From the IMG/VR virus record IMGVR_UViG_3300042880_000509: 21,435 bases of DNA; one strand, 5' to 3'. Positions 819-15,540 of this stretch are shown one piece after another. The notes under the pieces were generated by a model. That model searched no databases. It saw only the letters and a list, made by a program, of their open reading frames with translations, and was not told where the DNA came from. Numbering within the stretch: the first letter of the stretch is position 1; each line of letters starts with the position of its first letter. Source of the DNA: a virus (taxonomy: Duplodnaviria; Heunggongvirae; Uroviricota; Caudoviricetes). Both the position numbers and the translations under genes were made by a program.

Positions 819-1244
819 ATGGAAAAAATAACTCAAAACAGTACTGTGACTGTAAATTACACAGGTAAATTAGAAGATGGAACTATTTTTGACACATCTT
901 TAGTTGAAGGTAGGGAGCCACTAAAGGCTAAATTAGGTGAAGGTCAATTAATCCCAGGATTTGAATCTGGATTAATTGATATGACAATGGGTGAAAATAA
1001 AACTATTGATATAAACCCAACTGAAGCCTATGGTGAATATAACGACGAATTAATTGTTGAGGTCCCAAAAAATAATGTTCCCGAAAATGTTGAGGTTGGT
1101 ATGATGTTACAAACTTTTGGTCCTATGGGTCCTAGTATTGTTAAAGTTTTGGAAATTAAAGATGAGGTTGTTGTTTTAGATGCTAATCATCCTTTGGCTG
1201 GTAAAAAACTTACTTTTGAATTAGAAGTTGTTGGTGTAGAATAA
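819..1244 (+). CDS. slyD: FKBP-type peptidyl-prolyl cis-trans isomerase, SlyD/SlpA-like with insert-in-flap domain, no His-rich tail
   Basis: VTVNYTGKLEDGTIFDTS, LGEGQLIPGFESGL, AYGEY and DANHPLAGKKLTFELEVV are hallmark SlyD/SlpA motifs; slyD versus slpA assignment is uncertain. Confidence 0.95.
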   Translation: MEKITQNSTVTVNYTGKLEDGTIFDTSLVEGREPLKAKLGEGQLIPGFESGLIDMTMGENKTIDINPTEAYGEYNDELIVEVPKNNVPENVEVGMMLQTFGPMGPSIVKVLEIKDEVVVLDANHPLAGKKLTFELEVVGVE

Positions 1245-12805: not shown

Positions 12806-12935
12806 ACGAATACTTCGTTTTTGGGATCGTACCCCCTTTCTACCTGTCAAAACGTCATATATGGGGGGGATACGGGAGGGGGCCCCCCTGTCATAGCGTC
12901 ATACCCCAATATAGGGGAGGGGTAGTGTGCCAGTA

Positions 12936-13676
12936 TTAGTCCCCCTGACTAAATGTCAGTAATAACTTATCAACATCAAGTTGTGGATAAAAATATTCTA
13001 TTCCAATATCCATTGGTTCTTTGTCATCTCTCCATTGTTTATAAAACGACTGACCCCTTTCTAAATTATCAATGTAGTCATCAGTCCAGCTCTCATACTT
13101 TGTGTGGATAACATTCTTTGGTAGAACCTTGTAGATCTGATTAAGATCCCTTTCAATGTTACTACTAATCTTATTTACATTATCCTTTTCTTCTGCATCA
13201 ACATAACGCATAAAGTAAGATCCCTTTTCTCCCAATAGATCCCACCATTCATTTTCAATGTATGTTTTCTTAGGACTTGTTTTTGTTATTGTATAAAACA
13301 TATTTAAATCAAAATGAATATTAAGATAAATGAATGAATTATCAATTTCATGTACCTCAATATCTGTAATGAATGGGTATTTCTTTTTCATTAACTTTTC
13401 TAACATTTGAATGTCCCTACCTTTTTTTTTAACATCGCCGGTTGATTCCTGTAATGTTTCTTGTGTGGGGGATTCAATATCAATGGACCCAATGATTGAG
13501 GTTCCTTCCTTTAGATTATCTTCCCAATCTTTATAATCCTCATCTGAATCAAAGGTTTTAATAATGGACTTGTAGTATTCATTATCCCCATCCTGGATCT
13601 TTAATCCGATCCCCTTTGTTATCTTTGAGGTTAGGGCCTTATTTAATTGCTCTTCTGTTATGATATATTTTTTCAT
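12936..13676 (-). CDS. Leader-bearing two-domain protein
   Basis: MKKYIITEEQL leader; internal TLQES linker before the MLEKLMKKKYPFITDI domain; box at 13681-13688. Confidence 0.9.
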   Translation of the reverse strand: MKKYIITEEQLNKALTSKITKGIGLKIQDGDNEYYKSIIKTFDSDEDYKDWEDNLKEGTSIIGSIDIESPTQETLQESTGDVKKKGRDIQMLEKLMKKKYPFITDIEVHEIDNSFIYLNIHFDLNMFYTITKTSPKKTYIENEWWDLLGEKGSYFMRYVDAEEKDNVNKISSNIERDLNQIYKVLPKNVIHTKYESWTDDYIDNLERGQSFYKQWRDDKEPMDIGIEYFYPQLDVDKLLLTFSQGD

Positions 13677-13719
13677 ATAATATAAATATGAAGATAATAA
13701 TAAAATAGTTTATGTGGAA

Positions 13720-13751
13720 TTTGTGTATGTCAATTATTATTTGTACCTTTG
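13720..13751 (+). promoter_or_regulatory. Bacteroidota-type promoter
   Basis: TTTG (13720-13723), N20, TACCTTTG (13744-13751). Confidence 0.8.
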
Positions 13752-13755
13752 TATT

Positions 13756-13950
13756 GTCAGTGTTAATAACGAAGACGGGTTCGGTTCACGAGTTGGGGGT
13801 CGCAGAGGGTGGACTCCATCCTACTTTATTAAATAATAAAGCTCCCCGCAGTAAACTGGGAGATCAAAAAAGATATGTTGCCAAATTCATCTTGAACTTT
13901 ACGTACCACCTGGGTTACTGAACAACTAATTCCCTACTGTGGGGAAAACA
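13756..13950 (+). ncRNA. Candidate structured non-coding RNA of unknown class; strand uncertain
   Basis: About 44% GC over 13771-13950; consecutive hairpins (AGGGTGG/CCATCCT, CTTTATT/AATAAAG, CTCCC/GGGAG, TTCCCTA/TGGGGAA); begins just after a consensus promoter; no plausible ORF downstream of that promoter. Confidence 0.55.
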
Positions 13951-14017
13951 AATTCTAATAATAAATATAATCTTTTTTTAAAAAGTCAAGAATTTCTAAA
14001 CTATTTACTTTAATTTG

Positions 14018-14048
14018 TTTGGTAGTTCAAATATTATTTGTATATTTG
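14018..14048 (+). promoter_or_regulatory. Bacteroidota-type promoter
   Basis: TTTG (14018-14021), N19, TATATTTG (14041-14048); context ATTATTTGTAnnTTTGTATTGT shared with the 13720 promoter. Confidence 0.8.
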
Positions 14049-14075: not shown

Positions 14076-14210
14076 ATGTTACCACTTATTTCTACCTTGG
14101 GAGCCATGATGCCCACAATCGTTTTTATCGGGATCTTTGTATCTGTAATGTTCATTGGATATCTTGTTGATCCAAAGTTAAGAAACTTCTTTAATGGAAA
14201 ACGTAAATAA
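14076..14210 (+). CDS. Small single-pass membrane protein (44 aa)
   Basis: Start moved from 14019 to ATG 14076, downstream of the promoter; MLPLISTLGAMMPTIVFIGIFVSVMFIGYLVDPKLRNFFNGKRK. Confidence 0.75.
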   Translation: MLPLISTLGAMMPTIVFIGIFVSVMFIGYLVDPKLRNFFNGKRK

Positions 14211-14211
14211 T

Positions 14212-14316
14212 ATGGAACAGCAACTAATCGGTTTTTGTATAATGATGATTGGATTCATCATACTTGTGTTATCTGCTGTAGCTGATCAAAGGAGTGATTC
14301 CGAATCAATAGATTAA
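14212..14316 (+). CDS. Small single-pass membrane peptide (34 aa, not in ORF track)
   Basis: MEQQLIGFCIMMIGFIILVLSAVADQRSDSESID; starts 1 nt after the previous stop. Confidence 0.6.
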   Translation: MEQQLIGFCIMMIGFIILVLSAVADQRSDSESID

Positions 14317-14554
14317 TTCTTTGAAAATCACTGGGTCCCCCAATCTCTTTTATCTTATATAGATATTCTATCACATCATCCATCTGGCAGTGGGTCATTA
14401 TCTGAACTCGCTGCCTAAACTTCTTTGTCTTTCCTTGAAGTACATGTTCTTCATAGATACAGTGTCCGGAATACAAATCGTGACAATATGTCACAGTTAT
14501 GGTGTTACCTGATTTGGTAACTTTGGGGTTGAAGATGTCTAATACAGATTCCAT
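14258..14554 (-). CDS. Hypothetical protein with a Cys/His-rich segment
   Basis: 98 aa ORF with a TATTTAT box at 14572-14578; 3' end overlaps 14212..14316 antisense by 59 nt. Confidence 0.55.
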   Translation of the reverse strand: MESVLDIFNPKVTKSGNTITVTYCHDLYSGHCIYEEHVLQGKTKKFRQRVQIMTHCQMDDVIEYLYKIKEIGGPSDFQRINLLIRNHSFDQLQQITQV

Positions 14555-14599
14555 ATTGGGGATTTTTGTTAATAAATATTTGTTAAATTATTTGATTTT

Positions 14600-15540
14600 G
14601 TCAAAATGTCAGTCGTTCGTTGTAACCCACACAATCCCCTCGTCCAGTTTGTCCCACTTTTTACCACTCTATAGTTCCCACTATTTACCACCATAATTGT
14701 CGTTTCAGATACCAGAACCCTAATTTTTTCCCCTTCCTGATACCTACAGGACCATTTTTTTTACTATATCTATTTCCCAGTAAAAAAGGGAAGTTATAGT
14801 TCCTAAGCCAGGGATAGACATTTATGTTGTTAGTAGTTCACTAATAGATCATTAAAAAGATAACTTCAACGACCACTTTAGTGTTCTACTAATTATTCAT
14901 TCAACATCTGACCCTTCAAACTTACACAATAATTAACACAAAGTAAATGGTGGTAAAATGTGGGGATTACTAAAATCCCCCCGACTGATAAGGAGATGGG
15001 GATTATGTTTTATATCACTTAAGCAAGGTTTAACCTTGCAATCAAGATATGATTAGTAATCCCCTTTCATTACCACACCAAAATATAATACCATACTGTT
15101 CATTCATTTAATCTGTTCAGTGACACTGAACATCCTCTGAAAGTGAACACCTCATCATTATACCAGAACGTGTTACTTATATTGTGTACTCATTGGTCAC
15201 CTTAAAATTGGTAGTATCATTTAGTAAAATGGGGGGAAATTGTTATGTTGATTTGGTGTACATTATATTATTGTCGTGTCGATTTTTTTGTGTTTTTTCG
15301 ACATTAGAACTTATTGTGTCGATTAAACGTACATTATATTTTATTGTTGTATCATTATTATATTTTAATGTTAACTGAAAATAGTTTTTACAACAGTATA
15401 GGATTATGTTAATACTATTTTACATTATGATTTAAGATATGTCCCAGAAATTACCACATAACCTTTATAGAGATGTAAGTATAAGATTAAATTATGAGAC
15501 GAGTTCCGGAACGGTAGTGGAGGACTATGAGGCGAATGAA
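14600..15540. other. Non-coding, inverted-repeat-rich region (possible origin, regulatory hub or long structured RNA)
   Basis: No credible ORF in about 1 kb; CCCACTnTTTACCAC at 14653 and 14677 with an inverted copy at 14947; hairpins and palindromes at 14735, 14756, 14962, 14996-15066, 15114 and 15503. Confidence 0.6.

Follow-up and report, generated by a model that had tools for sequence, protein, structure and literature searches.

Comparative evidence for two convergent, uncatalogued small RNA genes in T4-like freshwater jumbo phages

A structured, non-coding locus in phage DNA is best read as two uncatalogued small RNA genes lying tail to tail on opposite strands, RNA A on the plus strand and RNA B on the minus strand, a reading to which we assign a probability of about 85% from the comparison of related sequences. 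Compensatory changes across dozens of related phages keep both RNA folds, and it is comparison of this kind that establishes the modules, the folds, the strands, the conserved promoter motifs and the non-coding status of the locus (Table 1). The window, meaning here the whole 21,435-nucleotide stretch that was analysed, is phage DNA of 30% GC whose minus strand holds nearly all of its genes. The element within it had been described as a single plus-strand RNA of about 190 nt at about 44% GC, and the latter figure is accurate (0.436, the second-highest value of any 195-nt interval in the 21 kb).

Several parts of the original prediction held when homologs were compared. The locus is conserved, non-coding and structured as proposed, the full promoter said to precede it is present in the window, and no tRNA is found there, with ARAGORN returning 0 genes and Rfam no match. 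The RNA had been called a class of no recognised kind, and none of the Rfam models matched over the element. What did not survive is the single transcript of ~190 nt, as its halves are separable and make up two RNA genes on opposite strands. The early-type promoter would indeed drive an RNA, but only the first 70-90 nt belong to it as RNA A; the 3' 120 nt, assigned to the same transcript, form a separate minus-strand RNA with a late-type promoter and a fold unlike the proposed one. All six proposed stems can be drawn in the window copy, but three of them are not conserved across 20 aligned loci: the stem at 13778-13794 is 61% paired with one double change, that at 13806-13822 is 69% paired with none, and the GTTG/CAAC closure of the domain at 13877-13926 is 56% paired with one. 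The stem at 13824-13841 is supported by 13 double changes in the same loci. The remaining two exist but belong to the other strand, the hairpin at 13842-13862 as the terminator of RNA B and the stem at 13930-13946, which is 99-100% paired, as its helix P2.

The original prediction had also preferred an RNA over the overlapping 69-aa open reading frame, and the homologs bear this out. The element is strongly conserved, in contrast to the reading frame, which is full length in only 2/20 loci and keeps its start codon in 3/20. The idea that this stretch specifies one plus-strand RNA of 190 nt with the six listed stems, or else a 69-aa protein, is largely refuted and seems to us barely credible. 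The promoter does lie on the plus strand, the stems are drawable in the window copy, and homologs with GUUG tend to have a CAAC downstream as well. However, the halves are separable, three stems are unconserved, the reading frame is rarely intact, and the wobble pattern of the 3' half indicates the minus strand. As a single sequence, the 195-nt stretch folds no better than its shuffles on the plus (z -0.83) or the minus strand (z -0.46).

Table 1. Features of the locus and its surroundings in the window
Feature	Position	Strand	Remarks
G-rich block	12845..12990	+	single copy; TGACA/TGTCA repeats; inverted DnaA-box-like 9-mers at 12967 and 12982
69-aa ORF, judged spurious	13712..13921	+	unconserved; frameshifting indels
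Bacteroidota sigma70-type (-33/-7) promoter of RNA A	13720..13751	+	TTTG-N20-TACCTTTG; fixed distance before homologs
RNA A	13752..13841 (approx.)	+	23-sequence alignment A4; start just past the -7 element
RNA A helix Pa	13754-58/13774-78, inner hairpin 13761-71	+	alignment A4
RNA A helix Pc	13780-86/13798-13804	+	alignment A4
RNA A hairpin Pd	13809-12/13821-24	+	loop ACUCCAUC; alignment A4
GURK-ACUCC-NNN-NYRY hairpin	13809..13824	+	common to nearly all RNA A subtypes and paralogs
RNA A A/U-rich hairpin Pe	13824-41	+	20 aligned loci
RNA B, ~118-122 nt	13836..13957	-	three-way-junction domain, A/C-rich single-stranded linker, terminator
RNA B intrinsic-terminator-like hairpin and U-rich tail	13836..13862	-	tail short here; 5-7 U in many homologs
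RNA B core	13883..13955	-	alignment A3, 30 sequences
RNA B helix P1	13955-47/13891-83	-	closes three-way junction
RNA B helix P2	13946-42/13934-30	-	5 pairs, 7-nt loop
RNA B junction UURG	13929-26	-	between P2 and P3
RNA B helix P3	13925-20/13897-92	-	alignment A3
RNA B internal loop A/GYAAA	A 13919; GYAAA 13902-13898	-	alignment A3
RNA B hairpin P4	13918-13903	-	alignment A3
ATATTTAT box, phage late-type promoter element (putative)	13961..13968	-	points into RNA B
98-aa protein gene	14258..14554	-	no other gene accompanies both RNAs as constantly; single copy
Non-coding block upstream of 98-aa gene	14560..14860	-	conserved; GTGG repeats, TGACA direct repeat, DnaA-like 9-mer

The evidence for the two folds comes from one alignment each. 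For RNA A, 89.8% of cells are paired, with 55 double changes and 12/19 pairs that show them; for RNA B, where all 30 sequences are distinct, 93.1% are paired, with double changes in 14/25 pairs and 82 cells, and in neither case were any of 500 shuffles as good, but kinship among the phages compared, which the shuffle control leaves out of account, means that these counts overstate the number of independent events. Controls with slid pairings reached 40-52% paired for RNA A and 30-57% for RNA B. Both structures were drawn by hand from the very sequences later scored. The strongest independent support therefore lies in compensations in loci retrieved later (L121, L134, L140 and L150 for RNA B; L218 and L225 for RNA A) and, likewise, in tetraloop substitutions in P4. 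A covariance model of RNA A (R2) recovered copies in L218, L219 and L225, all outside the alignment, at 67-75 bits.

RNA A is preceded by a promoter of the sigma70 type whose consensus in Bacteroidota is established. The pattern alone is not above chance in the window, with 3 found against 1.2 expected and 3 reached in 16/100 shuffles; a promoter of this host type precedes essentially every RNA A homolog. The strand is indicated by the wobbles of Pa, Pc and Pd, where U-G and G-U pairs fit the plus strand. The sole part common across subtypes is the hairpin with the ACUCC loop, likely a functional motif, and it is missing in one subtype (L063, L031, L224); the RNA A of phage G002 is of a subtype without it. 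Several phages carry two RNA A copies of different subtypes, often face to face across an A/U-rich hairpin. Second, structurally different paralogs with their own host-type promoters, a short 47-nt type among them, were observed in L090, L073, L225, L223, L134 and L138, often facing the first copy. On the plus strand no U tract was seen 3' of RNA A, and its 3' end is uncertain. An apparent GGUUCG that invited a tRNA-like reading belongs to the covarying helix Pc.

For RNA B, the minus strand is indicated by G-U wobbles and UNCG loops. P1 is paired in 281/297 cells when read on the minus strand against 205/297 on the plus, and the U-G pair that closes the junction is formed in 33/33 homologs on the minus strand and would be a mismatch on the plus. 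In L140 and L121 the P4 loop is replaced by cUUCGg and cUACGg, respectively. Folding energy was a poor guide to strand, being better for the minus strand in only 12/27 cases. RNAalifold recovered P1, P2 and the inner part of P4 and did not predict P3, in which two positions are often U-U. In the window copy, a strict terminator scanner did not call the terminator hairpin. Folded as a single sequence, this copy is predicted to form a rod in which GUUG pairs with CAAC, and RNA B may therefore have a second conformer. A long helix joining 13843-53 to 13935-45, preferred when single sequences are folded, was rejected as the conserved fold, being 76-79% paired with 4 double changes in 220 cells, but it may represent an alternative conformer. 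A loop-loop contact between P2 and P4, apparent in L031, L032 and L081, was likewise abandoned, given that UNCG tetraloops can substitute for the P4 loop. Nine phage records each contain one copy of RNA B.

The two RNAs occur without each other among relatives and are inherited separately. RNA B lacks an adjacent RNA A in L031, L032, L076 and L081, and in the complete record G003 and in G004 RNA B is present and RNA A was undetected; conversely, RNA A lies beside distant homologs of the 98-aa gene where RNA B was not found within 3 kb. The layout is convergent in most loci. In several, however, RNA A is directed away from RNA B, and in L071, L074, L083, L134 and L138 it sits on the other side of RNA B or on both sides.

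The element that points into RNA B is a TATTTAT box, whose reverse complement is the T4 late promoter consensus, and we infer from its sequence and placement that it is a late promoter. The window has 13 copies on the minus strand and 0 on the plus, mostly directly before minus-strand genes, and the box stands a few bases upstream of P1 in 33/33 parsed RNA B homologs. In the relative G001 it precedes genes of the capsid (head) region and 85 of the 342 open reading frames in the sense direction, against 29 in antisense. Its position, in the window as in G001, is often 4-6 nt ahead of the start codon. The locus thereby supplies a candidate late-promoter box for this phage group.

The carriers are T4-like freshwater Bacteroidota jumbo phages. 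Window DNA is matched identically in lake metagenomes, and independent lake assemblies reproduce the DNA. Relatives bearing the element are records of 224-296 kb; a T4-type Gp23 is encoded by three that are near complete, and 2/5 relatives tested carry bS21. The host is probably a Bacteroidota species, as size, Gp23 and bS21 match the Bacteroidetes-infecting lake phages already described (PMC9723584), whose bS21-encoding members G001 and G002 resemble in genome size (257-291 kb), in having Gp23 and in the head-region location of bS21. The main text of that study makes no mention of non-coding RNAs or promoters. Uncultured giant phages of lake Bacteroidota abound, and very little has been described of their non-coding RNAs.

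Homologs were gathered through a flanking gene for a 246-aa protein and then by DNA patterns, an initial exact 21-mer scan of viral contigs having given no match; BLAST against cultured phages returned promoter-sized matches only. Searches of the window and 21 homolog loci with the covariance models of Rfam 15 (E up to 10) found nothing near a gathering score. In 151 Bacteroidota genomes, with ~30 candidates scored per genome, the RNA A model gave five matches of 17-22 bits and the RNA B model (R1) one weak match, L188, which lies antisense within a gene and was rejected; across that same sample there was no convincing homolog of either RNA. Pattern matches from the genome collection (L159-L178) gave no score with R1 and were also set aside.

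Both RNAs belong to a control cluster, present in single copy, that also contains DnaA-like boxes and a G-rich block. The latter has the highest GC of the window and runs of G, is single copy in 5/5 phage records and is kept in distant phages; in the window the 246-aa gene lies between it and the RNAs. On the other side, the GTGG repeats upstream of the 98-aa gene are spaced about 10 nt apart and may be MraZ-box-like elements or iterons. No consensus RNA fold was found in that block (14560-14860). In the non-coding region to the right, one short hairpin with double changes appears at 14925-15064 in a rough alignment. The 98-aa protein belongs to a family with 111 diverse representatives and has a predicted alpha/beta structure (pLDDT 86). 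It found no match in Pfam, PHROG or the PDB, and comparison of folds gave no clear match (best Z 5.8). Its gene has a conserved 13-bp palindrome near 14481, and RNA B occurs beside both close and very divergent subfamilies of the protein. Small membrane-like reading frames around the RNAs vary freely between relatives, and a second host-type promoter at 14018-14048 (+) is placed to drive small hydrophobic ones (14077-14210) against the late genes.

How might two such RNAs act? The original prediction offered a sponge, an antitoxin mimic or a regulator. A sponge or regulator role is plausible from the sequence comparison; an antitoxin-type role is disfavoured by the lack of tandem repeats and of an obligatory partner gene. 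We infer that both RNAs are transcribed and bind protein, RNA A early and RNA B late. RNA A would be made from the host sigma70-type promoter, probably right after infection, and RNA B from the phage late-type promoter, stopping at its own terminator. Their compact folds would display a few invariant unpaired bases, namely the ACUCC loop in RNA A and the UURG junction and A/GYAAA loop in RNA B. Since the invariant bases lie in loops and junctions and the stems swap freely, recognition by shape appears favoured. Each RNA may then act in trans, with a protein bound as decoy, ligand or scaffold; the partner would be a host factor early for RNA A and a host or phage factor late for RNA B. A protein-binding role is favoured by the separate promoters, by RNA A paralogs with one common motif and by the absence of an evident antisense target, as none stood out among the phage genes of G001 for either RNA. 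In sponge RNA families, too, paralogs have one motif in common. Taken as a whole, the two-RNA anatomy together with a decoy or scaffold role and this timing is a tentative proposal that falls a little short of even odds. That RNA A and RNA B are two new RNA classes serving a jumbo phage as early and late tools against or with the host machinery is a far bolder claim, and we think it improbable. If it were true, RNA A could for example act as a decoy that engages the ribosomal platform proteins concealing the anti-Shine-Dalgarno tail in Bacteroidota, together with the phage bS21, and RNA B a late ribonucleoprotein or a catalytic RNA.

The architecture of the locus also invites explanations at the level of replication and DNA control, of which an origin deserves some weight although we consider it unlikely. 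RNA A would here start an R-loop primer as at T4 oriE/oriF, and late RNA B, or transcription across it, would shut this off as RNA I does in ColE1, where RNA I and RNA II are likewise convergent transcripts. T4 oriE combines an early promoter with iterons, and oriF and oriG a promoter with an A+T-rich unwinding element (PMC3016281). The locus similarly has an early-type promoter that opposes late genes and is followed by a short A/T-rich palindrome, as well as repeats, a small conserved gene and a flanking single-copy G-rich block. The 3 kb around it in G001 rank top for DnaA-like 9-mers (4 against 0.68 expected), but the enrichment is circular for three of the motif classes, which were themselves derived from this locus. 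Against an origin, the skew of G001 runs monotonically through the locus, without the shift in strand bias expected of a T4-type R-loop origin. Moreover, the G-rich block lies upstream of the RNA A promoter, the two RNAs barely overlap, at their common end only, and occur separately, and R-loop formation in T4 is independent of RNA sequence (PMC3016281), yet RNA A keeps a specific fold. A temporal antisense switch, in which early read-through from the RNA A promoter silences RNA B until late, is more doubtful than an origin. It would fit the plus strand without a U tract after RNA A, the convergence in most loci and, elsewhere, two RNA A paralogs that face each other across a common A/U hairpin. 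However, each RNA persists without the other, and in several loci RNA A is directed away from RNA B. Less probable again is a role at the DNA level, with the structures working as single-stranded DNA or as sites for protein binding in the way of the T5 injection-stop region, also a non-coding region with DnaA boxes, repeats and palindromes (bioRxiv 10.1101/866236). The phage locus too is set among DnaA-like boxes and palindromes, but its boxes are fewer and mostly imperfect, it is internal (82.6 kb of 257 kb in G001), and it contains discrete RNA genes with strand-consistent G-U pairs, UNCG tetraloops, and a promoter and terminator at their ends.

Other alternatives assign one of the RNAs a different partner. 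The ACUCC loop of RNA A, which resembles the CCUCC core, could be an anti-Shine-Dalgarno element that pairs with the few host mRNAs bearing an SD, rpsU among them, or that imitates the 3' tail of 16S as held by bS21, bS18 and bS6; we hold this to be slightly less probable than an origin. Bacteroidia sequester the anti-SD, and F. johnsoniae rpsU has a strong SD (PMC7797042, PMC13000453). GGAGG is present in 20/23 Flavobacteriaceae rpsU leaders, but GGAGU, the partner of ACUCC, is in 0/23, and RNA A forms weak, bulged duplexes with these leaders (about -9 to -16 kcal/mol). Among phage targets, the best does not stand out from shuffles, 10% of which are as good. Phages G001 and G002 have both bS21 and RNA A and G003 has neither, but this co-occurrence is based on three genomes, and the G002 subtype has no ACUCC hairpin. 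The bS21 gene of G001 (L247 1492-1674) is on the strand opposite the head genes and lacks the upstream SD that most host rpsU leaders have. RNA B, for its part, might form a dedicated complex with the 98-aa protein, like a type III toxin-antitoxin pair, or be a virion or packaging RNA like the pRNA of phi29, possibilities that we rate as low as the antisense switch. Among the constant neighbours the 98-aa gene is indeed the closest; it is present once, lies on the RNA B strand and has the same promoter box. RNA B, like pRNA, is phage-encoded, ~118 nt long, with a three-way junction, and it is of late type. However, distant 98-aa homologs have no detectable RNA B within 3 kb, RNA B accompanies very divergent protein subfamilies as well as close ones, and the model of the protein shows no clear match to a toxin or RNA-binding fold. 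RNA B is single, non-repeated and downstream of the 98-aa gene, unlike the tandem repeats upstream of a ToxN/TenpN/CptN-like gene expected of a type III toxin-antitoxin system, and the protein family is without a Pfam match. The likeness to pRNA fails where P4 loops shrink to UNCG tetraloops, which leaves no conserved loop-loop or intermolecular pairing; in addition, P1 encloses a domain inside the RNA and does not join its ends, and RNA B phages have T4-type head genes.

The protein-binding reading that we prefer has its closest parallels in sponge RNAs such as CsrB/RsmYZ and 6S RNA, with which RNA A shares its own promoter and paralogs with one displayed motif. The phage RNAs differ from these in having neither repeated GGA loops nor a long rod with a central bubble, and no Rfam match. 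T4 RNA C and RNA D are stable small phage RNAs with no assigned function. They and the candidates of Fremin et al. (PMC10690425) are, like the present RNAs, stand-alone structured phage RNAs of ~100 nt that came to light by comparison, and one or both of ours may already be listed among the automated candidates of that study. Two real, uncatalogued phage RNA families thus appear, from sequence comparison, to be joined in an unusual convergent arrangement. Such a pairing of early and late RNAs is, to our knowledge, not known from the small RNAs of T4-like or jumbo phages. The two folds are small and well defined and have natural compensatory variants, and they could be synthesised, probed or used as bait at little cost, with the RNA B junction and A/GYAAA loop and the ACUCC hairpin of RNA A as mutational handles.

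Further class assignments were tried and gained no support. Self-cleaving ribozymes (hammerhead, twister, pistol, hatchet, HDV-like) gave no Rfam match, and the RNA B junction is merely UURG. A riboswitch or attenuator leader does not suit genes downstream that vary, nor an RNA A that faces RNA B or another RNA A; the next minus-strand gene after RNA B in the window has its own box. Rfam did not bear out resemblances to the fluoride riboswitch, SRP Alu, tmRNA, Y RNA and 16S helix 14. A likeness to Cas13b repeats, which would suit an RNA anti-CRISPR that mimics or complements a host CRISPR repeat, found no support from a scan of the candidate 16-mer, which occurs singly in 20/401 Bacteroidota genomes, like the control, and never in an array.

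Small hairpin insertions of similar sequence, possibly a tiny mobile element or scars left by recombination, were observed in loops of RNA B and 3' of the ACUCC motif of RNA A (L059/L078 1886-2031, L090 4313-4458, L015, L079). Elsewhere in the window, many minus-strand reading frames share N-terminal leaders (MKKI..LTE and MNLQEQI types) on unrelated proteins, which look like capsid-targeting tags, and the reading frame at 819-1244 (+) is, by eye, presumably an FKBP/SlyD-like peptidyl-prolyl isomerase.
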